Counted from the stretch's first letter, positions 41,623 through 55,813 are shown. The stretch is 64,000 nucleotides of DNA from Betaproteobacteria bacterium (GCA_022599515.1 JAHZMC010000021.1:8708-72707); one strand, 5' to 3'. A program made the numbers and translations. Notes: generated by a model not told the origin, from the letters alone.

Positions 41623-43092
41623 TTATTTACCGTCACGCATTTTCTTAAACCAATATTCTAATTGTTTGCCAGCAGCTTCACGACCACCAAGGCCAAATGC
41701 TAGGGCAACGGCTACAGCAACTGAACCAAGGGTTAAGCCAAATGCCATGTTGACGATGTCATCTGCAATGCCCATTGCGCGTAGGCCCATTGCGACCACA
41801 AGGCCGACGATGGCAATGCGGGCGATATTGGCTAGGCCTGTTGATTTTTCGCCGCTTGCACGATCAATTGCATGGTAAGCAAGGTTGGCTAACCAGAAGC
41901 CAATGACTAGAATGACTGAGCCGAGTAGGATATCGCCACCAAACTGAATGAAGATGCTGACAATGTCGCTGACTTCTGAGAAGCCTAAACGATTGGCTGC
42001 TTCCACAGTGGCAAATAACATGGCAAAGAAAATGACGATTTTTCCAACAATGTCAGCGATTGTTGATTTTTTGTTAAATGTTTTTGCATAGCCTAGTTTC
42101 TCAGGCAGCTCGTTAAAACCGATGCTGGTGAGTAGATTGACAATCAGTGCGGCAACAAATTTAGCCACATAATAGGTGATGGTTAATATAACCGCTGCCG
42201 CTAAGATATTGGGCACCGCTTCAAACATCATGGAGAGCATATTGCTGGCTGGCTGAGAAACAGCACTCATTTGTAACGCATCTAAAGCGGCGATTAACGT
42301 TGGAATAAACACAAAGATAAACACCAACATACCAACAACGTTAGATAGTTTAATGGCGTTTTTACCATCCATATCCACTGCTTTTGAAACATTATCAATA
42401 CCGCTGGTTGCTAAAATATTGGTGACTAAACCGCGTAAAATTTTAGCAACAATCCAACCGACAAGTGCGATTACACCACCAGCAAAGATATTAGGAATCA
42501 TGACTAGAAATTCATCTACCATGCCTTGCACGGGTGCTAGTAAGCCGTTGAGTTCGAAGGTGGAAAGTAACGCAGGTAAGAACATTAAAATAATGATCCA
42601 AAACAGCATATTACCAACATTATTGCTCATTGGTTGCATGCCAGCTGCAGCGCTTAGTTTTTCGTCTAACTTGGTCGTTGCTAGTGCTTTAGTGACTATC
42701 AGTCTGACTAAAGTTGCAATTCCCCAAGCAATGGCTAGCAAAATTAATCCCGCAAAAATACGTGGTAAATATTCAAATATTTGCGTCACCATGACATTAA
42801 AAGGTTCAGAAACTGCTTGTAAATTTAAGCTACTAAATACGCCAATTAAAGTAATCAGTAGGATTAGAATAAAAGCGCCAAACGAGATGCCAGAAGCAAT
42901 ATCAACTTCTTGCCCCGTGCTTTCAGAGATTCTTTTGTTAATGCCTATCATGTTTAAAAAGCGGTTTAAGCCAGCGCGAACGAGTACAGCAATCAGCCAA
43001 CCACCTATCAACACAGCAAGCGCTCCAAAAATACCTGGTAGATGTTGACCCAATTGACCCTGCAAACTGTTCACAAGTGTAGAAAAGTCCAT
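41623..43092 (-). CDS. Conserved TM-helix-repeat (CmpX-like, mechanosensitive-channel-related) inner-membrane protein
   Basis: 489-aa polytopic protein made of repeated helix pairs of the type (..GGWIVAKILRGLVTNIL..GID..). Confidence 0.7.
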   Translation of the reverse strand: MDFSTLVNSLQGQLGQHLPGIFGALAVLIGGWLIAVLVRAGLNRFLNMIGINKRISESTGQEVDIASGISFGAFILILLITLIGVFSSLNLQAVSEPFNVMVTQIFEYLPRIFAGLILLAIAWGIATLVRLIVTKALATTKLDEKLSAAAGMQPMSNNVGNMLFWIIILMFLPALLSTFELNGLLAPVQGMVDEFLVMIPNIFAGGVIALVGWIVAKILRGLVTNILATSGIDNVSKAVDMDGKNAIKLSNVVGMLVFIFVFIPTLIAALDALQMSAVSQPASNMLSMMFEAVPNILAAAVILTITYYVAKFVAALIVNLLTSIGFNELPEKLGYAKTFNKKSTIADIVGKIVIFFAMLFATVEAANRLGFSEVSDIVSIFIQFGGDILLGSVILVIGFWLANLAYHAIDRASGEKSTGLANIARIAIVGLVVAMGLRAMGIADDIVNMAFGLTLGSVAVAVALAFGLGGREAAGKQLEYWFKKMRDGK

Positions 43093-43262
43093 TTGAAGTC
43101 CTCCTGAATTTTTATGAAATTGCAGATTCAGTTTACAACTAATTTCAGATAATACAAGGGAAAGGGGACAGTTAGCTGGGATTGGAGGCTAACGGTATCG
43201 TGGATATAAAGCGTAATTTAGGGGAGTATTCCCCTAAATTTTCTTAATGAGTTAGAAGTAAA

Positions 43263-43406
43263 TTATGTTCTCCATGGATGTTGTGGTAAATCACATTCAC
43301 CACATTTAGTCGCGCCAGCTACCGCAACGATATGGTCATTTTCAACCGTATCGCCACTCACACCAACAGCGCCAATCAGCATGCCAATCTGAAAAATCCA
43401 ACTATT
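43263..43406 (-). pseudogene. Remnant of a GlcG/DUF336 (heme-binding) gene, C-terminal end only
   Basis: The minus-strand translation ...[37 protein letters not shown]...* matches the conserved GlcG C-terminus ([11 protein letters not shown]...D..VA.A). A stop codon lies immediately upstream and there is no N-terminal part. Confidence 0.55.
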
Positions 43407-43438
43407 TCAATGACTTACTATTATCTTAGAAAACAAGC

Positions 43439-43495
43439 ATGCATTTTTTGCATGAAATGAAAGAAAGCATAATGGGTTCTATGCAAAATTTGCAG
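43439..43495. promoter_or_regulatory. Paired TGCA-N5-TGCA boxes (candidate enhancer/UAS) upstream of the cptA-like gene
   Basis: ATGCATTTTTTGCAT (43439-43453) and ATGCAAAATTTGCAG (43481-43495), 27 nt apart. They match the two boxes at 45461-45518 at 13/15 and 14/15 positions. Confidence 0.45.
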
Positions 43496-43595
43496 TTTTA
43501 TGTTGTTTATTACTCGCTTCGATTATTAAAATTAAAACAAGAATAACAATACGAATCAGTAATTTAGCTTGATTTAATTAATCGTTTACTAAACA

Positions 43596-43611
43596 TGGTA
43601 TTATCATTGCT
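43596..43611 (+). promoter_or_regulatory. Candidate sigma-54 (-24/-12) promoter of the cptA-like gene
   Basis: TGGTATtatcaTTGCT has GG-N10-GC spacing with TTGCT at -12. It lies 36 nt before the ATG at 43647, 101 nt downstream of the box pair, and is separated from it by an AT-rich tract. Confidence 0.5.
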
Positions 43612-43646
43612 CATAGCATTGGACAATTCAATCAATAAGCCATGAC

Positions 43647-45401
43647 ATGCAAACAATCAAGAAACTATTTAACAAGTCACTTTTTAGCAAGCTAGCAATT
43701 AACCCATCATCGTTAATGTCGTTTTTACTCTTTTGGTATCTCACCAGTATCACGCAATTGCTCATTAGTTTATCGGGTGCTGCCTCGTTTGAAGGCTTTA
43801 AAGATGCCACCATTACGGCATTTTTATGGATGATTCCTGTGCTGTTATTTCCGCAGCAGGTAAAAAGAATTACCGCAAGTTTAGGCATTATGCTTTGGCT
43901 ATTTGCGTTGCCTGGCTTTGGTTATTACCTTATTTATCATCAAGAATTAACGCAAAGTTTGATGTTTATTATTTTCGAATCTAATCAATCCGAATCAACC
44001 GAATATTTACAAAATTATTTGTCCATTGGGATTGTTTTAAGCTATATCGCGTTTACCTTAGTGCCTCTTTATATTTGGACAACAATAAAGCCTTATGAAA
44101 GCACAAGAAAACCAGCCAATATCACCAGCTTCATTTTAATAACACTTATTTTTATGACGCCTGTGAAACGTGCAATTCAATATGGTGACATTAATGCAGC
44201 TTATAAAAATTTAAATCGCCATTTGTCAGCGGCGCCGCCATGGCAACTTGGATTTGGCTACAGCAATTATCAGCGAGAGTTAAAAGAAGTCGAAGCACAA
44301 CTGCTCAATTTAAACAAAATTCCAGCGCTCAAAAATTTTACAGAAACGAAAAAAGAACTGCCGACAACAGTTGTGCTGGTGATTGGTGAATCGACGACGC
44401 GCGTACACATGGGCTTGTACGGCTATGGCCGAGACACGACGCCAAAACTTTCTAGCATGAAAGATGAATTAATGGTTTTTGACAATGTATTTGCATCCAG
44501 ACCAAATACGATTGAGAGTTTGGAGCAAGTGCTCACTTTCGCCAATCAAGCCCAGCCTGATTTATATAAAACCACGCCTTCTTTAATCGCCATGATGAAG
44601 CAAGCGGGTTATAAAACCTATTGGATTACCAATCAGCAAACGCTCACACAACGTAATACTATGCTCACCACGTTTGCCAAGCAAGCAGATGAACAGGTGT
44701 TTTTGAATCATGGGCGCCGTCAAAATTCTTATAGTTTTGATGCCAAAGTATTGGCACCATTTGCCGAGAAATTGCTTAAACAAGATGAAAAGAAACTCAT
44801 CATCGTCCATTTGCTCGGTACCCATATGAAGTACGCCTATCGATATCCAGCGGACTACAACTTTTTTAATAATGCAGAAGGTATACCTGAAGTCATTTCT
44901 GCCGATTCTGACAAAGTGACACTGGTGAATGAGTATGATAATGCCGTTCGTTATAACGATTACATTGTGCACGCACTGATTCAACAATTGAAACAATCAA
45001 CTGCAAGTGCTACACAGAGCTTATTGGTTTATTTTTCTGATCATGGAGAAGATGTCTATGACTCGGCGCCACACGCATTTAAAGGGCGCAATGAAGGCGC
45101 GCCAACCTACCCCATGTATGCCGTGCCATTTATCGTATGGCATTCGCCAAACTGGCAAAACGCGCAACAGCTAGCGGATTCTGCAATCCGTCACCGCCAG
45201 TATGATAATGCTGATTTTATTTACACGTGGTCAGATTTAATTGGGCTGACCTACGATGGTTATCGCGCAGATGAAAGTCTTATCAATAACGCATTTGGCG
45301 AAGATACCATCCTAGTAGGCGATCCTTATCATGGCAATTTGCACGTGCTCGATGGCACGATTAAACCAGTGAATCTGCCAGTGAATACGCAGAAAAACTA
45401 G
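43647..45401 (+). CDS. cptA: Phosphoethanolamine transferase, CptA/EptC type (LPS core heptose)
   Basis: Similar along its length to E. coli CptA as I recall it (..VLVIGESTTR..LYGY.R.TTP..., MKQAGYKTYWITNQQT, LIIVHLLGTHMKYAYRYP, YFSDHGE). It has an N-terminal TM domain and a sulfatase-fold domain. Confidence 0.85.
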   Translation: MQTIKKLFNKSLFSKLAINPSSLMSFLLFWYLTSITQLLISLSGAASFEGFKDATITAFLWMIPVLLFPQQVKRITASLGIMLWLFALPGFGYYLIYHQELTQSLMFIIFESNQSESTEYLQNYLSIGIVLSYIAFTLVPLYIWTTIKPYESTRKPANITSFILITLIFMTPVKRAIQYGDINAAYKNLNRHLSAAPPWQLGFGYSNYQRELKEVEAQLLNLNKIPALKNFTETKKELPTTVVLVIGESTTRVHMGLYGYGRDTTPKLSSMKDELMVFDNVFASRPNTIESLEQVLTFANQAQPDLYKTTPSLIAMMKQAGYKTYWITNQQTLTQRNTMLTTFAKQADEQVFLNHGRRQNSYSFDAKVLAPFAEKLLKQDEKKLIIVHLLGTHMKYAYRYPADYNFFNNAEGIPEVISADSDKVTLVNEYDNAVRYNDYIVHALIQQLKQSTASATQSLLVYFSDHGEDVYDSAPHAFKGRNEGAPTYPMYAVPFIVWHSPNWQNAQQLADSAIRHRQYDNADFIYTWSDLIGLTYDGYRADESLINNAFGEDTILVGDPYHGNLHVLDGTIKPVNLPVNTQKN

Positions 45402-45458: not shown

Positions 45459-45520
45459 GCCTGCATTATTTGCATTACCTATAGCATTAGTCTCAATGGA
45501 TGCATGCAAAAGTTGCAGGC
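45459..45520. promoter_or_regulatory. Paired TGCA-N5-TGCA boxes (candidate enhancer/UAS) upstream of the methyltransferase-PAP2-eptA operon
   Basis: GCCTGCAttaTTTGCAT (45459-45475) and ATGCAAAagtTGCAGGC (45504-45520) form a 17-nt imperfect inverted pair (14/17), 28 nt apart. Confidence 0.5.
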
Positions 45521-45604: not shown

Positions 45605-45620
45605 TGGCATGCCGCTTGCT
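45605..45620 (+). promoter_or_regulatory. Candidate sigma-54 (-24/-12) promoter of the methyltransferase-PAP2-eptA operon
   Basis: TGGCATgccgcTTGCT is near-identical to the TGGCAC-N5-TTGCW consensus. It lies 40 nt before the ATG at 45660, with AAGGGA as the RBS. Confidence 0.65.
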
Positions 45621-45659: not shown

Positions 45660-46355
45660 ATGTTTAACCATGCAGGTAAAGCAGAACCGCAAGCCGAAGC
45701 AACATTAGCTTTCTCTAACAAATACGACCAACAACATGCGCAACAATATTTTGAAAAACATGATGATGGTATTTGGCGCAAACTATCCAATTGGCGCGAT
45801 CAGCAAATTGCTAGAAAAGCACTCAAAATAGCGGGCAATCCAAAATCGGTACTTGATACACCCTGCGGCACAGGTCGCTTTTGGGGTGTGCTTGCGGAAA
45901 ATAACAATAGAATTATTCACGCTAGTGATTACAAACAAACCATGATTGATGTTGGCGTGCTTAATCGTCCGCAATCAATCACTAAACGAATCAAACATTT
46001 TCAAGCCTCGGCGTTTGAATTGCCAGTGCCAGATCAATTTGTAGACAGTATTTTTTGCATGCGCTTCATACACCATTTGGGCGAATCTGCAGACAGAGTA
46101 AGGTTGCTAAAAGAGTTTCACCGCGTAACAAAAGAAACAGTGATTATTTCACTTTGGGTTGATGGCAATATCAAAGCAAAAAGAAGGTTGGCACTTGATC
46201 AAAAACGTCCTCCAAAAACGTATCAAAATCGCTTCGTTATTCCAGCTAAAACAATTGAAGAGGAGTTTAGAGCAAACGGATTTACAGTTATTGAAAAGCT
46301 TGATTTTTTAAAGCATTACCATATGTGGCGCACTTATGTAGTGCGTAAAGTCTAA
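45660..46355 (+). CDS. Class I SAM-dependent methyltransferase
   Basis: Motif I VLDTPCGTGRF with downstream motifs. 231 aa and soluble. Confidence 0.8.
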   Translation: MFNHAGKAEPQAEATLAFSNKYDQQHAQQYFEKHDDGIWRKLSNWRDQQIARKALKIAGNPKSVLDTPCGTGRFWGVLAENNNRIIHASDYKQTMIDVGVLNRPQSITKRIKHFQASAFELPVPDQFVDSIFCMRFIHHLGESADRVRLLKEFHRVTKETVIISLWVDGNIKAKRRLALDQKRPPKTYQNRFVIPAKTIEEEFRANGFTVIEKLDFLKHYHMWRTYVVRKV

Positions 46356-46373
46356 AACAGGTATAGTAATAAC

Positions 46374-47069
46374 ATGTTTTCTTTTAAAACGCTCAGAACA
46401 GCACTTTTTGTATTGTTATTCTCAGGTGTATTTTTTGCAGTAATCTCTCAGTTTACCAGCATTGATGTGAACATCGAAGATTACTATTACGACGCTCAGA
46501 AACACCAATTTATTTGGAAAAATAGCTGGTTTGCAAAGCAATTGATGCATACCTATGTCAAAGACGTGATTATCGTATTAGCGCTATTGCTTATCATTGT
46601 TGTAGTGGTCGATATAGGCAAACCAATCAGCAAAATAAGCGCATGGACGCGCATTAGGCTGCGGTTTGTAAGCGTTGCAGCGATTGTTATTCCCTCTTTT
46701 ATCTCTAGCGCAAAACAACTGTCAGTCATGCATTGCCCATGGGATGTTGAGCGCTATGGCGGTGCCGTGCCTTATCTAAGACTATTTGACATGATGCCAG
46801 CGCATATAAAAGCAGGTCATTGCTTTCCCGCAGGACATGCTTCAACAGGCTTGTGGTTGGCGGCATTTTGCGTCTTTTGGTTACCTTACCATCCGCGCAA
46901 GGCATTGCTGGTTTTTTTAGCGGGCTTGGGCGTTGGGTTTGTACTCGGCTGGGTGCAACAAATGCGGGGCGCGCACTTTCTTTCTCACACTTTATGGTCA
47001 GTGTGGATAGCCAGCGCCATTATTCTGCTCATGCTCTGTGTTAGCCAGTCATTCATCAATCGTCATTAA
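46374..47069 (+). CDS. PAP2 superfamily membrane phosphatase (LpxE/PgpB-like)
   Basis: Polytopic protein with PAP2 C2/C3-like motifs (FPAGHAS, MRGAHFLSHTLWS). Adjacent to eptA. Confidence 0.8.
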   Translation: MFSFKTLRTALFVLLFSGVFFAVISQFTSIDVNIEDYYYDAQKHQFIWKNSWFAKQLMHTYVKDVIIVLALLLIIVVVVDIGKPISKISAWTRIRLRFVSVAAIVIPSFISSAKQLSVMHCPWDVERYGGAVPYLRLFDMMPAHIKAGHCFPAGHASTGLWLAAFCVFWLPYHPRKALLVFLAGLGVGFVLGWVQQMRGAHFLSHTLWSVWIASAIILLMLCVSQSFINRH

Positions 47070-47086
47070 TTTTACAGAAACAAGTT

Positions 47087-48730
47087 ATGCTCAATACTCG
47101 CTTTACTAAACTCATCAATTCACAAACAGGCGCTATTTTCTTGGTTGTATTGTTTGTGATGCTTACCGCTAATATGTCGCTCTTTCAGCATATTGTAGAA
47201 ATTTACCCACTCAATCTGCGCAATATCCCGTTTTTAATTTCATTATCTATTTTTTTCAGCTTATTAACGGCTTTGTTTTTCATGGCAATTAGCTTCGGTA
47301 GAAAAGGTCGCTGGCTGATTGCTTTGCTATTAATCATCAGCGCGCAAGCCGCTTATTATATGGATAATTTCGGTGTATTGATGGATAGCGTGATGATAGA
47401 CAATATCATACATACCGACGCTAAAGAGGTGGAAGGTTTAGTGAATGTTGGTATGGTGATGCATCTCTTGTTGCTAGGCGTCTTGCCTGCTTGGTTGGTG
47501 ATTCGATATTGGCCAACAGTGAACAATATCAGTGCTGAGATTAAAACGCGGTTTTTGTGTTTATTGCTATTGATTATTGCACTTGTTGTCGTGGTATTGC
47601 CATTTACGGCGGGTTATACCAGCTTTATCCGTGAACATAAAATCACCCGTTTTTATGCTAATCCTACCTACCCAGTTTATTCATTAATCAAATATGCGCA
47701 ATTACAATTAAAGGACAAACAACAAGCTGACATCACAAAAACGGCAAATGATGCTCAATTTACAGAGGGGAGTATTAAAAATGAATTGGTGATTATGGTT
47801 GTTGGTGAAACCGCGCGAGCGGATAGATTCTCACTCAATGGCTATCACAAAGAGACAAACCCGCGCTTAGCAAAAGAAGATATTGTGAACTTTACCAATG
47901 TGAGTTCATGCGGTACTTCTACTGGCGTTTCAGTTCCGTGTATGTTTTCAGAATTAGGTCGAAAAGACTACGACAAGCAGAAAGCATTAAACCAAGAAAA
48001 TATATTGGATGTGTTAGCGAAAAACGGTATAGAAGTGTTATGGCGTGATAACAATTCAGATTCAAAAGGCGTTGCGACTAGGGTTCAATACGAGGATTTC
48101 AAAACGCCGACTCACAATCCTGTTTGTGAAGGTGAATGCAGAGACATTGGTATGTTGAGTGGGTTGGATGCTTATATAGCTTCTAAAAAAGGCAAAGATA
48201 TCATGATTGTGTTGCATCAAATGGGCAATCATGGCCCTGAATATTATCGCCGCTATCCAAAAGCATTCGCAAAATTTCAACCAATGTGTATGACAGGTGA
48301 ATTAAGAGATTGCACAAAAGAAGAGGTAAATAATAGTTACGATAATGCGATTTTATATACGGATTATTTTTTATCAGAAGTCATTCAATTCTTAAAAAAA
48401 TACGATGACGATTATGAAACGGCGATGTTGTATGTATCTGATCATGGTGAATCGCTAGGTGAAAATGGCGTTTGGTTGCATGCCGCACCTTATATGATGG
48501 CGCCAAAGACGCAAACGCATGTGCCAGCTATTTTGTGGTTAGGACAACACTTTGATTACAACATATCGCAAGCGGAAGTTTATAAAGACGCGCCATTAAG
48601 TCACGATGATTTATTTTGCACCTTACTCATCGCTTATGAGCTGGATGCGAAAACCTGTATTGCAAAAAGAGAGATGCTCATGAATAACTTAGCTATTCAA
48701 GCAGCGTTAACTATTGAGAAAAGGCGATAG
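47087..48730 (+). CDS. eptA: Phosphoethanolamine--lipid A transferase
   Basis: Five N-terminal TM helices and a sulfatase domain with EptA motifs (VVGETARADRFSLNGY, SCGTSTGVSVPCMFS, HQMGNHGPEYYRRYP, VSDHGESLGE). Confidence 0.88.
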   Translation: MLNTRFTKLINSQTGAIFLVVLFVMLTANMSLFQHIVEIYPLNLRNIPFLISLSIFFSLLTALFFMAISFGRKGRWLIALLLIISAQAAYYMDNFGVLMDSVMIDNIIHTDAKEVEGLVNVGMVMHLLLLGVLPAWLVIRYWPTVNNISAEIKTRFLCLLLLIIALVVVVLPFTAGYTSFIREHKITRFYANPTYPVYSLIKYAQLQLKDKQQADITKTANDAQFTEGSIKNELVIMVVGETARADRFSLNGYHKETNPRLAKEDIVNFTNVSSCGTSTGVSVPCMFSELGRKDYDKQKALNQENILDVLAKNGIEVLWRDNNSDSKGVATRVQYEDFKTPTHNPVCEGECRDIGMLSGLDAYIASKKGKDIMIVLHQMGNHGPEYYRRYPKAFAKFQPMCMTGELRDCTKEEVNNSYDNAILYTDYFLSEVIQFLKKYDDDYETAMLYVSDHGESLGENGVWLHAAPYMMAPKTQTHVPAILWLGQHFDYNISQAEVYKDAPLSHDDLFCTLLIAYELDAKTCIAKREMLMNNLAIQAALTIEKRR

Positions 48731-50364: not shown

Positions 50365-52032
50365 ATGTTAAAAAGATTAAGTATTAAGCAATTATTGTTG
50401 CTGGCCTTTTTGTTAGCGGGCTTGCTGCCGGCGATGTTAGTCAGTTTTTTAAGTTTCTATCAAAGCCGTTCTGTTCTCAAGCAAGAAATTACGCGTGATA
50501 TGCAAACATTGAGCACGGCAGTTGCCAATGATATGGAGCGCATGATGTTTGAACGTTTGCGCAATGTGCAATCATGGAGTCAGCTCTCTATTATGCAAGA
50601 GCTCAAAATTGGGGATATTGATAAACGCTTATCTGTTTTTTTGAATGGTTTAGCACAGAGTTACGGCAATATTTACCATGTCATTTATGTTGAAGATTTG
50701 CAACATAGGGTGATTGCCAGCAGTAATGCTAAGAAAATCGGACTACAAAATCAGCCTCAGCCGCCTTGGTTTTCTGCCAGCTTATCTGGCAGGTCATTAA
50801 GTATTGCTAAAATCAACGGCAATGTTTTAGCGATTTCTGCAGAAATTATTGATGAAACGACCAACATTCCTATGGGTCAGCTTGTGGTCGAATTTAACTG
50901 GGATATCGTGCAAAATGCACTGAATAATGTGATCAAAAAACCAACAGCAGCAGCATTGCTAGATACGAATGGCAATGTGTTGGCGGCGACCTCAAATTGG
51001 GCAGAAATTCATTCTGGATATGGTATGTATGCGATTAGTCAATTTAGTCAGCAATCACCAATGCCCCAATGGCGGGTGCAAGTTGAAAAGCTACACTCCA
51101 TAGCAGTCGCGCCTGTACATAAATTGGGCCATATCTTTTTGGGTTTGTTGGCGGCAACTTTGCTATTGGCCGCGTTAATGGTCAGGCCGATTGCACAAGC
51201 TATTACGCAACCAATCTCGCAATTAACCCAATTTGTAAAAGGTTTTGCGCGACAAACAAAGGCGAAACCGCCACAGTCTGGGCCACCAGAAGTACGTGAG
51301 TTAGTCGCTGCTTTTGAAACGATGACAGAAGATTTAGCCAAGTCGCAAGAAAAGCTAACGCGCGCTGCAAAGCTAGCGGTTGTTGGTGAAATGGCTGCGG
51401 CGATGAGTCATGAAGTGCGCACGCCGCTAGGCATATTACGTTCTTCAGCGGATGTATTAAAGCGCGAAAAAACCTTATCTGACGAAGGTAGAGAAGTGCT
51501 GACGTTTATTGGCGCAGAAACAGAGCGGCTCAATAAATTAGTATCTACTTTAATTGATGCGGCGCGTCCGCGTTTGCCTATTTTTTCTCAGCTTAACTTA
51601 ACAGAATTAATCGCCAATACAGTCGCCATGTTGCGGAATCAAGCGCAGGCAAAACAGATTCATCTGACATTTGATCGCCAAACGCCGACGGTAACCGCAG
51701 CGGTTGATGCAGACCAAATGACGCAAGTCATGATGAATTTAATCATGAATGCAATACAAGTGTTGCCAGAAGGCGGACATATTATGATTGTGTTAGAACA
51801 TATCGGTCATCAAGCGGTGATTCGTGTGGAAGATGATGGCGAAGGGATTAGCGAGGAACATCAGGCGCAGATTTTTGAGCCATTTTTTACTAAACGTGCA
51901 GGCGGTGTTGGTTTGGGATTGGCGGTGGTGCGACAAATTGTATTGGCGCATGGCGGTGAAATTCATTATCAAACCAGCCAAATGCATGGCGCGCAGTTTA
52001 CAATTCTCATTCCAATACAACAGGCAAGTTAA
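50365..52032 (+). CDS. Sensor histidine kinase with a periplasmic (Cache-like) domain, HAMP, HisKA and HATPase domains
   Basis: Two TM segments flank a loop of about 230 aa. H-box (MSHEVRTPL) and N/G boxes (NLIMNAIQ, DDGEGI, GGVGLGLAV) are present. Confidence 0.88.
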   Translation: MLKRLSIKQLLLLAFLLAGLLPAMLVSFLSFYQSRSVLKQEITRDMQTLSTAVANDMERMMFERLRNVQSWSQLSIMQELKIGDIDKRLSVFLNGLAQSYGNIYHVIYVEDLQHRVIASSNAKKIGLQNQPQPPWFSASLSGRSLSIAKINGNVLAISAEIIDETTNIPMGQLVVEFNWDIVQNALNNVIKKPTAAALLDTNGNVLAATSNWAEIHSGYGMYAISQFSQQSPMPQWRVQVEKLHSIAVAPVHKLGHIFLGLLAATLLLAALMVRPIAQAITQPISQLTQFVKGFARQTKAKPPQSGPPEVRELVAAFETMTEDLAKSQEKLTRAAKLAVVGEMAAAMSHEVRTPLGILRSSADVLKREKTLSDEGREVLTFIGAETERLNKLVSTLIDAARPRLPIFSQLNLTELIANTVAMLRNQAQAKQIHLTFDRQTPTVTAAVDADQMTQVMMNLIMNAIQVLPEGGHIMIVLEHIGHQAVIRVEDDGEGISEEHQAQIFEPFFTKRAGGVGLGLAVVRQIVLAHGGEIHYQTSQMHGAQFTILIPIQQAS

Positions 52033-52034
52033 GC

Positions 52035-53393
52035 ATGGACACCCAAAAACGTATTCTCGCAGTTGATGATGAGCCGAATATGCGGCGCTTGCTGGAGATT
52101 AGTTTGCGTCAAGCAGGCTATCAAGCGTTGACCGCCGCCAATGGAAGAGAGGCATTAGAGACCCTCAAAACAGAGCAAGTGGATTTGGTCGTTAGCGATT
52201 TGCACATGCCGGGCATGAGCGGTTTAGAGTTGCTTAAACAAATGCGCGCAGACAGTGATGCCATTCCTTTTATTATGGTAACGGCACAAGGTGAAATTAA
52301 TACCGCAGTTGAGGCGATGAAGTTAGGCGCGGCGGATTATATCTTGCGCCCTTTTGATTTAGAGGTGCTGGAAGTTGCAATTGCCAAAGCTCTAGATATC
52401 CAAAGATTACAGCTTGAAAACACCTATTTAAAATCGACAACGCAACCGATTGTGCAAGGCCTAATTGGCGAAAGTTTAGCGATGCAAACATTGAAGCAAA
52501 TGATCGCACAAGTCGCGCCAGAAAAAGCCACCGTATTAATTGCAGGTGAAACAGGCACAGGTAAAGAGCTTGTTGCAAAAGCCATTCATACCGCCTCGAG
52601 TAGAAAAGACGGTTTATTTGTTGCGGTCAATTGCGCGGCGATACCCGCAGATATGTTGGAATCTGAGTTATTTGGCTATGAAAAAGGCGCTTTCACAGGC
52701 GCAGTTAAAACACGGGTCGGTAAATTTGAATTGGCAGATAAAGGCACACTATTCTTAGATGAAATTACTGAGATGCCTATCCATTTGCAAGCTAAGCTAC
52801 TACGTGCATTGCAAGAAGGTGTAATTGAAAAATTAGGCAGTAATAAACAAATTGCTTTGGATAACCGCATTGTTGCGGCCACCAACCGCGATGCCATGCA
52901 AGCGGTCAAAGATGGTAAGTTGCGAGAAGATTTATATTATCGATTGAATGTATTTCAGTTGAATGTACCCGCCTTAAAAGAACGTACAGGCGATGTGGCT
53001 TTATTAAGTCATTTCTTTTTGGCCAAGCGTGAGGGTGAAGAACGTAGCGCTCAAATAAGTGATGAAGCAATGCAGCAGTTACAACGTTATGATTGGCCTG
53101 GTAATGTGCGTGAGCTAGAAAATGTACTAGAGCGCGCTTCTATATTGTCATCAGGCGGTCAGATTGAAACGCATCATTTGCCGAGTGATATTGTAGGCAA
53201 TACTATCAGCGCAGTAGATAATACGACGCTACAAAATGATTTTTCCATCCCAGCGCAAACACAAAGGCTAGAGAAAAAACTAATCACTGAAGCAATTGAG
53301 CGTTGTAATGGCAATAAAGCAAAAGCAGCCAAATTACTCGAGATTAGTGAACGCTCACTCTGGTATAAGCTAGATCAATACCAACTAAAATAA
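52035..53393 (+). CDS. Sigma-54-dependent response regulator (NtrC-family enhancer-binding protein)
   Basis: REC domain (DDEPNM..D..MPGMSG), an AAA+ domain with GETGTGKE and the GAFTGA loop (EKGAFTGA), and a C-terminal Fis-type HTH. Confidence 0.92.
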   Translation: MDTQKRILAVDDEPNMRRLLEISLRQAGYQALTAANGREALETLKTEQVDLVVSDLHMPGMSGLELLKQMRADSDAIPFIMVTAQGEINTAVEAMKLGAADYILRPFDLEVLEVAIAKALDIQRLQLENTYLKSTTQPIVQGLIGESLAMQTLKQMIAQVAPEKATVLIAGETGTGKELVAKAIHTASSRKDGLFVAVNCAAIPADMLESELFGYEKGAFTGAVKTRVGKFELADKGTLFLDEITEMPIHLQAKLLRALQEGVIEKLGSNKQIALDNRIVAATNRDAMQAVKDGKLREDLYYRLNVFQLNVPALKERTGDVALLSHFFLAKREGEERSAQISDEAMQQLQRYDWPGNVRELENVLERASILSSGGQIETHHLPSDIVGNTISAVDNTTLQNDFSIPAQTQRLEKKLITEAIERCNGNKAKAAKLLEISERSLWYKLDQYQLK

Positions 53394-53580: not shown

Positions 53581-54255
53581 ATGACATCAGTACAAAAAAG
53601 TCTCGGTAACGAGCAAGCACGTTTTAATATGATTGAACAACAAATTCGCACATGGGAAGTATTAGATCCCAATGTGTTGCAACTGTTGCATAAAGTGCCA
53701 CGTGAACATTTTGTGCCAGAAGCCTATCAAGGCTTGGCGTTTGCTGATATTGAAATACCGCTGATTGATGGGCAGTCTATGTTGTCACCTAAATTAGAGG
53801 CACGGATTTTACAGTCGTTGGCGATTAAACCCAGCGATCAAGTTTTGCATATAGGCACTGGTAGCGGTTACTTCACCGCTCTACTCGCCAACATGGCGGC
53901 ACATGTCTATTCAGTTGAAATTAACGCTGAGTTAAGTGCAGCAGCCGCATACAAATTAGCAGAGCATGATATTCATAATGTGACGATTGAACTAGGTAAT
54001 GGTATTGATGGACTAAAAGCACACCAACCTTATGATGTCATTGTGTTAACTGGATCATCCCCAGTTGAGCCATTAAACTTACGTGATCAATTAGCCATCG
54101 GCGGCAGCTTGTTTGTGGTGTTAGGGTCTGCACCAGCGATGGAAGCAACGTTAATTACGCGGGTTTCTGAAACGGGCTTTAATAAACAAGTGATTTTTGA
54201 AACTTGTCTACCTGAATTAGCAAATGCGCCGCAAGGGAATACGTTTAGTTTCTAA
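53581..54255 (+). CDS. Protein-L-isoaspartate O-methyltransferase family protein
   Basis: SAM motif VLHIGTGSGYFTALLA. The pcm-like/tolC gene pairing is conserved in proteobacteria. Confidence 0.85.
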   Translation: MTSVQKSLGNEQARFNMIEQQIRTWEVLDPNVLQLLHKVPREHFVPEAYQGLAFADIEIPLIDGQSMLSPKLEARILQSLAIKPSDQVLHIGTGSGYFTALLANMAAHVYSVEINAELSAAAAYKLAEHDIHNVTIELGNGIDGLKAHQPYDVIVLTGSSPVEPLNLRDQLAIGGSLFVVLGSAPAMEATLITRVSETGFNKQVIFETCLPELANAPQGNTFSF

Positions 54256-54277
54256 GTGATTGTTTCTAATTAAATTA

Positions 54278-55813
54278 ATGAAAAAATTAATCATCTTTTT
54301 AGTATTAATGACGTCAAATATGACATTTGCCGCATTTGATTTGATGCTGTCTAAACTGTTAGTCAGCATTGATCCTATGGTGATTGAGAACGAAGCACTG
54401 CCTTTAAAACAACAAACTTTGTTCGATGTTTATCATCAAACCTCGGCTAATGATCCTGCCTTATTAGGTTTGGTCATGACAATAAAGTTGGCGGCACTTG
54501 ATACGCCTTCAGCGACAAAGTTTGTTGGGCGCTTCAAACAGCAGACTTTGCTCGACATTTATCAGCAAGCTTTAGCCAATGACCCAACATTGGCTTCTGC
54601 CTTAAGTGGCAATCAATCAGCCCATGAGTTGATTGAGCAAAGTAACGCACTGTATCGGCCAAAAGTGAATTTAAGCGCGAGCGCGAGTGCTTCTGAAACC
54701 AATATTGAATTTATTGGGGCCAGTATTTTTCGTGGTGATGGGCGCCAATCTTTTGAAAGTCGCAGATACGCATTAGAGGCAAGACAGCCCATTTTCCGTA
54801 AGGATAGCTGGGTGAAAATGAAACAAGCCAGAACACAAGTCAGTCAGGCTGATAAGCAATATCATTTAAGCCAACAAGATCTTATTTTGCGCGTCACTGA
54901 GGCTTACTTTGATGTGTTAATTGCACAAGATCAAATGGATTTAATTCAAGCGCAAAAGACGGCCATACTTGGTCAATTAAAACAAGCGCAGGCTAATTTC
55001 GAAGTGGGCACTTCCACCATTACCGATGTGAATGAAGCGCAAGCACGGTTTGATTTAGTGGTTTCACAAGAGATTGCGGCAGAAAATGATTTCCTCATCG
55101 CAAAAAGAGCGATAGAAGCCATCACCAATGAAGAGCCACAAAAATTAGCCACAGTGAAATCGGATATTAAAGTCGCCGTTTTAGGTCAAACCATCGAAGA
55201 TTGGCAGCAAGTGGCTCTTGAAAATAATTTAAATGTGCAAATTCAGCAAGATAATTTAGCGATTGCTGAGCAAGAAATCTCAGCAGCAAAAGCAGGGCAT
55301 TTACCGACGTTAGACGCGGTTGCTAGTTTCAGTAATAACTATGCAAACGGCAGTGCTAACGGCTTTGGTAGTGATTTAGATAATGCCACTATCGGCGTCG
55401 AGGTAAACGTACCCATTTATCAAGGTGGTTCAATTAGTTCAGCAGTAAGACAAGCGATGTACGATAAGCAAAAAGCGCAAAATGAATTAGATGTGACTTT
55501 GCGTAAGGCAAGCTTAGAAACACAGCGTAATTACCTAAACTTAGGCAGTAGCATTGCGCAAGTACGTGCCTTAGAGCAAGCCTTATCAAGTAGTCAAAGT
55601 CAGCTAGATTCAACCACATTGGGTTATGAAGTGGGTGTGCGAACCAGCGTTGATGTGTTGGATGCGCAGCAACAATTATTTTCGGCTAAACGTGATTTAT
55701 TACAAGCAAGATACAGTTATTTAGTGAATATTATCCGTCTTAAATTTGTGACGGGCTTGGTCTCTGTTGAAGATTTAGAAGAAATTAATAATCAATTGGT
55801 TGTAGGTAGTTAA
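54278..55813 (+). CDS. tolC: TolC family outer-membrane efflux channel
   Basis: Signal peptide MKKLIIFLVLMTSNMTFA, and two OEP repeats with the ALANDPTL...Y.PKV pattern. The start is set at the ATG at 54278. Confidence 0.88.
   Translation: MKKLIIFLVLMTSNMTFAAFDLMLSKLLVSIDPMVIENEALPLKQQTLFDVYHQTSANDPALLGLVMTIKLAALDTPSATKFVGRFKQQTLLDIYQQALANDPTLASALSGNQSAHELIEQSNALYRPKVNLSASASASETNIEFIGASIFRGDGRQSFESRRYALEARQPIFRKDSWVKMKQARTQVSQADKQYHLSQQDLILRVTEAYFDVLIAQDQMDLIQAQKTAILGQLKQAQANFEVGTSTITDVNEAQARFDLVVSQEIAAENDFLIAKRAIEAITNEEPQKLATVKSDIKVAVLGQTIEDWQQVALENNLNVQIQQDNLAIAEQEISAAKAGHLPTLDAVASFSNNYANGSANGFGSDLDNATIGVEVNVPIYQGGSISSAVRQAMYDKQKAQNELDVTLRKASLETQRNYLNLGSSIAQVRALEQALSSSQSQLDSTTLGYEVGVRTSVDVLDAQQQLFSAKRDLLQARYSYLVNIIRLKFVTGLVSVEDLEEINNQLVVGS

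Follow-up and report, generated by a model that had tools for sequence, protein, structure and literature searches.

Introduction

The nearest described relative of the gene cluster analyzed here is the ColRS regulon of Pseudomonas. At the colRS locus of Pseudomonas putida, PP0900 (a PAP2 phosphatase), colR, colS, PP0903 (a putative methyltransferase) and PP0904 (InaA) lie together (PMC2689224), and the ColR regulon, which is induced by Zn and Fe3+, takes in PP0900, PP0903-05, CptA (PP2579), DgkA and PagL (PMC4074579). These genes are co-induced and redundant in metal tolerance (PMC2689224, PMC4074579, PMC8805031); iron tolerance of P. putida falls only after the joint removal of four ColR-regulon loci (PMC4074579). 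The cluster described in this study lies within a 64,000-nt stretch of DNA from a betaproteobacterium (GCA_022599515.1 JAHZMC010000021.1:8708-72707), referred to below as the window, to which all coordinates apply unless a locus or contig is named. It comprises genes for a CptA-type phosphoethanolamine (PEtN) transferase, a class I S-adenosylmethionine (SAM) methyltransferase (at 45660-46355; MT hereafter, for gene and protein alike), a PAP2-family phosphatase and an EptA-like PEtN transferase, and it belongs to the known class of regulated loci that remodel the charge of lipopolysaccharide (LPS). We consider it probable that the four genes form a co-regulated island for remodelling LPS phosphates, in which MT, a cytoplasmic member of a kinase-coupled family, would act on an LPS precursor before export, with O-methylation of a phosphate as the favoured chemistry.

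The methyltransferase of the colRS locus has several names; in P. fluorescens WCS365, the pair orf222/wapQ now bears the names warA/warB, taken from P. aeruginosa (PMC8805031). The WarA/PP0903 gene was reportedly conserved in 15 of 15 pseudomonads sequenced by 2009; it has also been reported to be induced by zinc and iron and has been tied to rhizosphere fitness and immune evasion. An earlier reading of this DNA, the original prediction, held that nothing was established for the gene family in this setting. That statement was incomplete, the WarA/PP0903/Orf222 protein being a known member of the ColRS regulon (PMC2689224, PMC8805031). No definition of the reaction catalyzed by WarA/PP0903 was found in the accessible literature. 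Regulation of the Pseudomonas gene by ColR and its pairing with the LPS kinase WarB/InaA are already known, and none of the enzyme classes in the window is new; the main interest comes from the family-wide context and its bearing on the unsolved WarA reaction, more than from the window itself.

To our knowledge, WbdD of Escherichia coli O9a is the only characterized pairing of a kinase with a class I methyltransferase in LPS biogenesis. The WbdD kinase phosphorylates the terminal mannose and its methyltransferase then methylates that phosphate, a step for which H132, H133, R203 and Y16 are essential (PMC3482155). The placing of a PAP2 phosphatase beside a PEtN transferase is a recurrent pairing, described for mcr-1/mcr-2 and for Helicobacter pylori (PMC10285318, PMC7559476); the main text of a survey of PEtN transferase gene contexts makes no mention of a methyltransferase (PMC10285318).

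The methyltransferase family is linked to LPS modification genes

An open reading frame (ORF) listing placed MT, PAP2 and eptA on the same strand, separated by 18 nt (46356-46373) and 17 nt (47070-47086), exactly as originally predicted, and we infer that the three genes are co-transcribed. The CptA gene upstream is a fourth member, one that the original prediction did not name. The first protein carries the motif VLDTPCGTGRF and matched the Pfam families Methyltransf_11 (E 3e-13) and Methyltransf_25; neither a transmembrane segment nor a signal peptide was detected in it (maximum 19-residue hydropathy 0.75), in keeping with its description as a soluble class I SAM methyltransferase. When compared with the homologue that follows colRS in nine Pseudomonas loci (L013-L017, L020, L028 and L042 among them), MT showed 52-55% identity over about 219 aa (E about 1e-80). 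The layout of these loci, verified with Pfam in L013, is PAP2 on the minus strand, response regulator, histidine kinase, MT and a Kdo/WaaP-family kinase. By sequence, MT is thus a member of the WarA/PP0903/Orf222 family, where orthology to WarA (PAO1 PA4379) was assigned from the published locus layout.

MT has more than 1300 homologues; an exhaustive profile search gave 111 representative clusters at E <= 1e-30, and the family alignment holds 22 invariant columns. The distribution is patchy; of 400 genomes in a class-wide sample, 12 had a member, as did 18 of 151 Methylophilaceae. In the class-wide sample, all seven hits of at least 46% identity had an adjacent kinase, whereas all six hits of 42% identity or less had no LPS neighbour, and the family boundary was placed near 45% identity. 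Across all loci this boundary is less sharp, since L022 (48%) and L065 (54%) also lack an LPS neighbour.

To survey the neighbourhood, 61 non-redundant loci were drawn from three independent samplings (a pattern-based genome search, an even sampling of the class and an even sampling of the family), and neighbours within 3 kb of MT were annotated by clustering with Pfam/NCBIfam checks. LPS-modification genes were present in at least 47 of the 61 loci. Tallies by neighbour type cover 57 loci; the other four (L015, L016, L020, L042) are of the colRS type, and PAP2 and kinase genes were seen there as well. The commonest neighbour was a Kdo/WaaP-family kinase (29 loci), followed by an EptA/CptA-type transferase (16), PAP2 (15) and a sulfatase-family membrane protein of about 660 aa (10). 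MT lay inside an inner-core cluster in five loci, together with two heptosyltransferases, a GT4 glycosyltransferase, a WaaP-like kinase, further kinases and a carbamoyltransferase; an independent look-up supplied a sixth example (P0119). No wzm/wzt or O-antigen polymerase genes were seen in the surveyed loci. By its best-matching relatives, the window comes from an uncultured lineage of Methylophilaceae (the assembly that holds the window is 1.64 Mb long and 90.5% complete), and the order (CptA)-MT-PAP2-EptA was found again in three other genomes of that family (L002, L051, L052). This recurrence, along with the LPS genes found near MT across the survey, indicates that the grouping is not due to chance. 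The conserved linkage likewise bears out the proposal that the genes form one functional unit for LPS/lipid A head groups; rather than clustering with an unrelated family whose genomic context lies elsewhere, MT proved to be linked specifically to LPS chemistry.

The sulfatase-family neighbour of about 660 aa gave its best NCBIfam matches to phosphoglycerol transferase I and LtaS, far below cut-off, and may be a further head-group transferase. In six loci from one Methylophilaceae genus, g344 (L054, L056, L057, L060, L061, L062), it is present in two copies within MT-kinase-sulfatase-PAP2-sulfatase islands.

Fusion to kinases and history of the locus

Among the best 150 representative hits of the exhaustive profile search, seven homologues exceeded 400 aa, and all seven contained a Kdo-family kinase domain. 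Three orders were observed: MT-kinase (P0142, P0150, P0256), MT-kinase-SCP2 (P0270) and kinase-SCP2-MT (P0210, P0217, P0246). P0217 (L098:438-2426) is an intact gene of 662 aa on its NCBI contig, and a His-His dyad and a C-terminal Arg that are invariant in the MT family are kept in all four fused proteins whose sequences were inspected. Such fusions (Rosetta-stone evidence) argue that MT and an LPS-type kinase act on the same molecule, and SCP2, a sterol-transfer, lipid-binding family in Pfam, may hint at a lipid-anchored substrate.

In a maximum-likelihood tree, the window MT fell within a Methylophilaceae clade (approximate likelihood-ratio test (aLRT) support 94) in which a kinase directly downstream of MT is the usual state. 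Within a four-member subclade (the window, L002, L051 and L052; aLRT 93), PAP2 stands in the slot held by the kinase in sister genomes; L053, L055 and L059 are sister genomes with a kinase partner at the same chromosomal site, which was recognized in relatives by its shared downstream PBP-like and OMP-like genes. The arrangements at that site were MT-EptA, MT-PAP2-EptA, CptA-MT-PAP2-EptA, CptA-MT-kinase-PAP2-EptA, CptA-MT-kinase-EptA and MT-kinase, with MT the sole constant gene. The tree further indicated at least two independent origins of the EptA-MT linkage, one in a Pseudomonas clade and one in Methylophilaceae; in Pseudomonas L021, the EptA and MT ORFs as called overlap by 8 nt. The constancy of MT in a variable island, its position between WaaP-type kinases where it lies within core clusters, its repeated linkage to PEtN transferases and its fusions with kinases together point to a phosphorylated LPS precursor as substrate.

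The genome that contains the window encodes a second MT paralogue with 56% identity (G000 contig C41:5640-7153; L037), located directly after an InaA-like Kdo-family kinase. It groups with the Pseudomonas colRS-linked clade, apart from the window MT, and may represent a separate acquisition. Near this MT-kinase pair are a DUF6876 gene, a Peptidase_S24/IMS (umuDC-like) pair and a gene for an exonuclease/GIY-YIG protein. In Pseudomonas fluorescens P5A (L019:5920-7406), two MT-family genes lie in tandem, the second of which is very divergent (38% identity to the window MT) and sits on a long branch.

Site of action and acceptor of the methyltransferase

SAM is cytoplasmic, and WaaP-type kinases act in the cytoplasm. 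Since MT has neither a transmembrane segment nor a signal peptide, it should also act there, and the coupling of its family to Kdo/WaaP-type LPS kinases suggests that its substrate is an LPS precursor on the inner membrane face. EptA/MCR-1 and PgpB-type PAP2 enzymes, in contrast, are polytopic membrane proteins whose catalytic domains are periplasmic (PMC7559476). With EptA, CptA and PAP2 on the periplasmic face and MT in the cytoplasm, N-methylation of ethanolamine that has already been transferred, the first of two roles originally suggested for MT, is unlikely, because a soluble cytoplasmic enzyme cannot reach periplasmic PEtN-lipid A. In a variant of this idea, MT would methylate the phosphatidylethanolamine donor (PmtA-like chemistry) and EptA would then install N-methylated PEtN. 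Both forms can draw on the fact that MT has a PEtN transferase, or two of them, next to it both in the window and, independently, in Pseudomonas, and on matches to plant and nematode phosphoethanolamine N-methyltransferases in the PDB profile search (E 1e-6 to 1e-5). However, these matches cover only profile positions 54-148, the generic SAM-binding half; the Plasmodium phosphoethanolamine methyltransferase fold ranks 26 or lower (TM-score 0.58-0.62), no dedicated phosphatidylethanolamine N-methyltransferase model was matched in NCBIfam, and the family is most often partnered by a sugar kinase, with repeated fusions between the two, while many loci have no PEtN transferase at all. We therefore regard ethanolamine N-methylation, in either form, as very improbable.

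In the mechanism that we favour, the island would remodel phosphate groups of LPS in both the inner core and lipid A. MT would methylate an LPS precursor at the inner membrane face before export, O-methylating a sugar- or lipid A-bound phosphate and so masking one negative charge. Methylation of a phosphate was the second role raised in the original prediction, and it stays viable if placed in the cytoplasm ahead of export. After flipping, at the periplasmic face, PAP2 would remove a phosphate, CptA would place PEtN on a core heptose phosphate and EptA would place it on a lipid A phosphate. The effect would probably be to lower the negative charge of the surface under some envelope or metal stress, where the direction of the change is our own reading. 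If this is true, methyl phosphate would join dephosphorylation and the addition of aminoarabinose or PEtN as a third means by which LPS phosphate charge is masked; an unrecognized charge-masking modification, operating alongside PEtN addition and dephosphorylation, would then be encoded in the Pseudomonas core genome and in methylotrophs, which would matter for metal tolerance and for how susceptible cells are to cationic peptides. Should the favoured chemistry hold, the product of MT, an LPS phosphate carrying a methyl group, would be of the kind made by LmtA of Leptospira, a lipid A 1-phosphate methyltransferase; LmtA is an integral-membrane enzyme of the ICMT family, whereas the window MT is a soluble class I enzyme of an unrelated family. 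Should MT do something ordinary, the locus would be a compact, sigma-54-wired version of a known regulon.

The chemistry is suggested by WbdD. Its class I methyltransferase, which falls in the same Pfam families as MT, and a sugar kinase jointly modify a lipid-linked LPS glycan on the cytoplasmic side, and the methyltransferase-then-kinase order of WbdD is also the usual gene order of the WarA family and that of some of the fusions. When MT family profiles were compared with WbdD profiles (E. coli HS sequence), the match was generic (hhalign probability 88-92%), and H132/H133 of WbdD aligned exactly with the invariant dyad H138/H139 of the MT family, whose invariant basic residues are R73, R135, R146, R155, K172, R176 and R224. 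The two systems differ in several respects. The WbdD kinase matches APH/Pkinase and the WarB-type kinase belongs to the Kdo family; WbdD holds methyltransferase and kinase in one chain with a coiled-coil domain (PMC3482155) and adjoins wzm/wzt in an O-antigen cluster, whereas the window MT is a single-domain protein with no adjacent kinase. BLASTP detected no significant similarity between the WarB-type kinase and WbdD, so that the likeness is an analogy of mechanism and not one of membership. On this analogy, WarA/PP0903 might be a 'split WbdD', a soluble phosphate O-methyltransferase that works on the cytoplasmic side and caps a phosphate of inner-core heptose or lipid A by making it a methyl ester, once that phosphate has been supplied by a Kdo/WaaP-type kinase, be it a partner or a fused one, or else by the core kinases; the proposal is possible, though we would not expect it to hold in this specific form. 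A phosphate is likewise our best specific guess at the methyl acceptor, albeit a doubtful one, with the remaining probability divided between a core sugar hydroxyl and other targets.

Several observations weigh against the favoured mechanism. R203 of WbdD falls one residue away from invariant R224, at the start of the last strand and in a stretch of low-confidence alignment, and NodS and RebM, neither of which is a phosphate methyltransferase, have the His-His dyad too (PMC3482155). Structure prediction and remote homology searches, which had been proposed as a check, gave a confident class I fold, a compact AlphaFold2 model with a mean predicted local distance difference test (pLDDT) score of 90.9 and a disordered N-terminus. 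As to substrate, they gave no indication: against solved structures, the single protein and the family profile matched only generic class I methyltransferases, over the SAM-binding half. The best Foldseek matches of the model in the PDB were MitM, ChlM (TM-score 0.73), AtmM, RebM and DnrK, at 13-22% identity; WbdD was absent among the 50 matches listed. We know of no report of a methyl phosphate in the Pseudomonas core or lipid A, and the acceptor chemistry of MT is drawn from analogy and gene context. For P. aeruginosa WarA, two reviews that summarize McCarthy et al. 2017 describe c-di-GMP binding and an altered O-antigen distribution rather than core methylation (PMC7168646, PMC8515127), and deletion of warA had no phenotype in one rhizosphere assay (PMC8805031). 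In the window itself no kinase adjoins MT, PAP2 being there instead, and two genomes of the same genus with MT-PAP2-EptA have only three kinases, all in the core cluster; the tie between MT and a dedicated kinase is thus not a strict one.

Because the dyad occurs in NodS and RebM, it is not diagnostic; phosphate methylation is accordingly rated as a best guess only, and the main alternative is that MT O-methylates a core sugar hydroxyl, on heptose or hexose, at the cytoplasmic face, which could block or replace a phosphorylation site with no methylation of phosphate involved. The linkage and fusion evidence applies equally to this alternative, and the best PDB sequence match of MT is the sugar O-methyltransferase AtmM (6uv6, E 2.9e-6), which together with RebM is among the top fold matches. 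AtmM and RebM, however, are only 13-16% identical to MT, no better than many unrelated methyltransferases, and the invariant basic residues and the pairing and fusion with kinases fit an anionic, phosphorylated acceptor better; we regard sugar methylation as rather unlikely. A lower probability still attaches to MT being mainly a cyclic di-GMP-responsive regulator or capping enzyme of O-polysaccharide assembly, one which controls chain length and is no partner of PAP2 and EptA in lipid A/core editing. According to the same reviews, WarA interacts both with SadC and with the LPS machinery, and the distribution of O-antigen is changed by it (PMC8515127, PMC7168646); WbdD itself is a chain-length regulator. 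Yet the genes around MT belong to the inner core and to lipid A (WaaP-type kinases, heptosyltransferases, carbamoyltransferase, EptA, CptA and PAP2), and the survey turned up neither of the O-antigen gene classes mentioned above; such a role appears unlikely. Finally, MT could be an unrelated housekeeping methyltransferase, UbiE-like for example, whose adjacency to PAP2 and eptA is accidental. Homologues are sometimes named 'ubiquinone/menaquinone biosynthesis C-methylase UbiE', and weak UbiE/MenG matches were obtained, but at 42.8 bits these are far below the cut-off of 158, and a patchy family that is nearly always adjacent to LPS genes and is fused to LPS-type kinases makes this hardly credible; it was rejected on the context survey and the sub-cut-off scores.

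The PAP2 phosphatase and the PEtN transferases

The original prediction also likened PAP2-eptA to the LpxE-EptA pair of H. pylori. Adjacency and the recurrence of such pairings sustain that analogy, which is plausible by position, whereas motifs and scores lend it no support. PAP2 matched Pfam PF01569 (E 1e-9) and has at least four hydrophobic segments, but scored 95.7 bits against a cut-off of 275 for NCBIfam PAP2_lipid_A and 64.5 against 475 for PAP2_near_MCR1; no LpxE or LpxF match was obtained in NCBIfam, and comparison with solved structures gave no meaningful match. Its motifs are K-x6-CPW, PAGH and RGAHFLSHTLWS, in which the C1 Arg and C3 Asp of the canonical KX6RP / PSGH / SRX5HX3D set are absent. 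The LpxE analogy is therefore weak, as PAP2 lacks canonical KX6RP and the C3 Asp and falls below every lipid A phosphatase cut-off. The Pseudomonas PP0900-type relatives share the variants of the window protein (K-x6-CPW, PxGH and (R/Q)GAHFxSHxxW(S/T/A), without the C3 Asp), and the hPAP2 linked to mcr-1 has likewise lost the central residue of its catalytic triad, an Asp (PMC7559476). Among the candidate substrates are the 1-phosphate and the 4'-phosphate of lipid A and a 1-diphosphate; some different lipid phosphate is a further candidate.

EptA contains EptA_B_N (PF08019) at its N-terminus followed by Sulfatase (PF00884) in Pfam, passed the cut-off of 500 for NCBIfam NF028537 (phosphoethanolamine--lipid A transferase) with 613.7 bits, and aligned over its full length with MCR-1 (9nww, E 8.5e-129) and Neisseria EptA (5fgn). 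The blocks GETARAD, SCGTSTG, HQMGNHGP and SDHGESLGENG, which we take to be the seat of the catalytic Thr and the Zn ligands in MCR-1, are conserved. As in mcr-1-pap2, mcr-2, mcr-7 and H. pylori eptA-lpxE, an EptA/MCR-like transferase here adjoins a PAP2 gene; in contrast to those cassettes, the PAP2 gene of the window is upstream of the transferase, and MT and CptA are added. With every MCR cut-off missed widely (437 of 1100 bits for MCR-1, 441 of 1200 for MCR-2, 445 of 1235 for MCR-6), the cluster is no MCR cassette, and its EptA is a chromosomal transferase of the intrinsic type. CptA matched NCBIfam PRK10649 with 673 bits (cut-off 404) and Pfam Sulfatase, has predicted transmembrane segments, and is predicted to add PEtN to phosphorylated core heptose.

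Table 1. Genes and promoter elements of the cluster and of the nearby regulators, in window coordinates.
Feature	Position	Strand	Description
15-nt box ATGCAAAATTTGCAG	43481-43495	+	Upstream of cptA; probable activator site
-24/-12-like element TGGTATTATCATTGCT	43596-43611	+	Between the 15-nt box and cptA; read by eye
CptA-type PEtN transferase	43647-45401	+	584 aa; ends 258 nt before MT
Second 15-nt box ATGCAAAAGTTGCAG	45504-45518	+	Upstream of MT
Sigma-54-type -24/-12 element TGGCATGCCGCTTGCT	45605-45620	+	About 40 nt before the MT start codon
MT	45660-46355	+	231 aa; soluble class I SAM methyltransferase, WarA/PP0903/Orf222 family
PAP2	46374-47069	+	231 aa; non-canonical PAP2-family membrane phosphatase, PP0900-type subfamily
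EptA	47087-48730	+	547 aa; EptA/MCR-like phosphoethanolamine--lipid A transferase
dCache histidine kinase	50365-52032	+	HisKA/HATPase_c/dCache_1 (Pfam); 1.6 kb downstream of eptA
NtrC-type sigma-54 activator	52035-53393	+	Response_reg, Sigma54_activat and HTH_8 (Pfam)

Promoters, regulators and the ColRS regulon

Two promoter regions of similar build precede cptA and MT (Table 1), each with a 15-nt box about 100 nt upstream of a -24/-12-like element. The box pattern ATGCAAAANTTGCAG had exactly two matches in the window, these two, and none of 100 shuffles gave two. For the pattern TGGCAYNNNNNTTGCW, the element before MT is the sole exact match in the window, where 0.64 were expected; the count alone is not significant, and the element is made credible by where it lies and by the upstream box that it has in common with cptA. 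Scans for generic sigma-70 promoters and for terminators were uninformative, their counts being no higher than those of shuffled sequence. The histidine kinase and the NtrC-type activator encoded downstream of eptA likely regulate both promoters, as their proximity and the shared boxes suggest.

The set of genes in the window matches the ColR regulon of P. putida and can thus be regarded as a physically condensed version of that known, dispersed regulon. MT family, non-canonical PAP2 subfamily and the CptA/EptA partner classes are common to the two; WarB kinase follows MT at the Pseudomonas colRS locus, whereas PAP2 takes that place in the window. Control differs as well, in that the dispersed Pseudomonas genes answer to OmpR-type ColRS via ACGNNTTTTTNAC, while the contiguous genes of the window have sigma-54-type promoters with an NtrC-type activator nearby, and no match to the ColR box (ACGNNTTTTTNAC) was found in the window. 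The box footprinted at the PP0903 promoter (ACGTTTTTTTCAC) matched exactly upstream of MT in Pseudomonas L028. The same exact box lies about 130 nt upstream of MT in an uncultured member of the Methylophilaceae (L004:1903-1915, the same site as L061:6807-6819), where an OmpR-type two-component system is present and the order is response regulator, histidine kinase, MT, kinase, sulfatase, PAP2; ColRS-like regulons thus do not seem to be confined to Pseudomonas.

Flanking genes

Just after the sigma-54 activator, at 53581-55813, two genes follow, one encoding a PCMT-like methyltransferase of 224 aa and the other an outer-membrane efflux protein of 517 aa. On the left flank (41623-43640), a mechanosensitive-channel gene is followed by a gap of 550 nt, where same-genus relatives have a T_hemolysin / AMP-binding / Haem_oxygenas_2 / SDR cluster; the difference suggests a rearrangement at the edge of the island.

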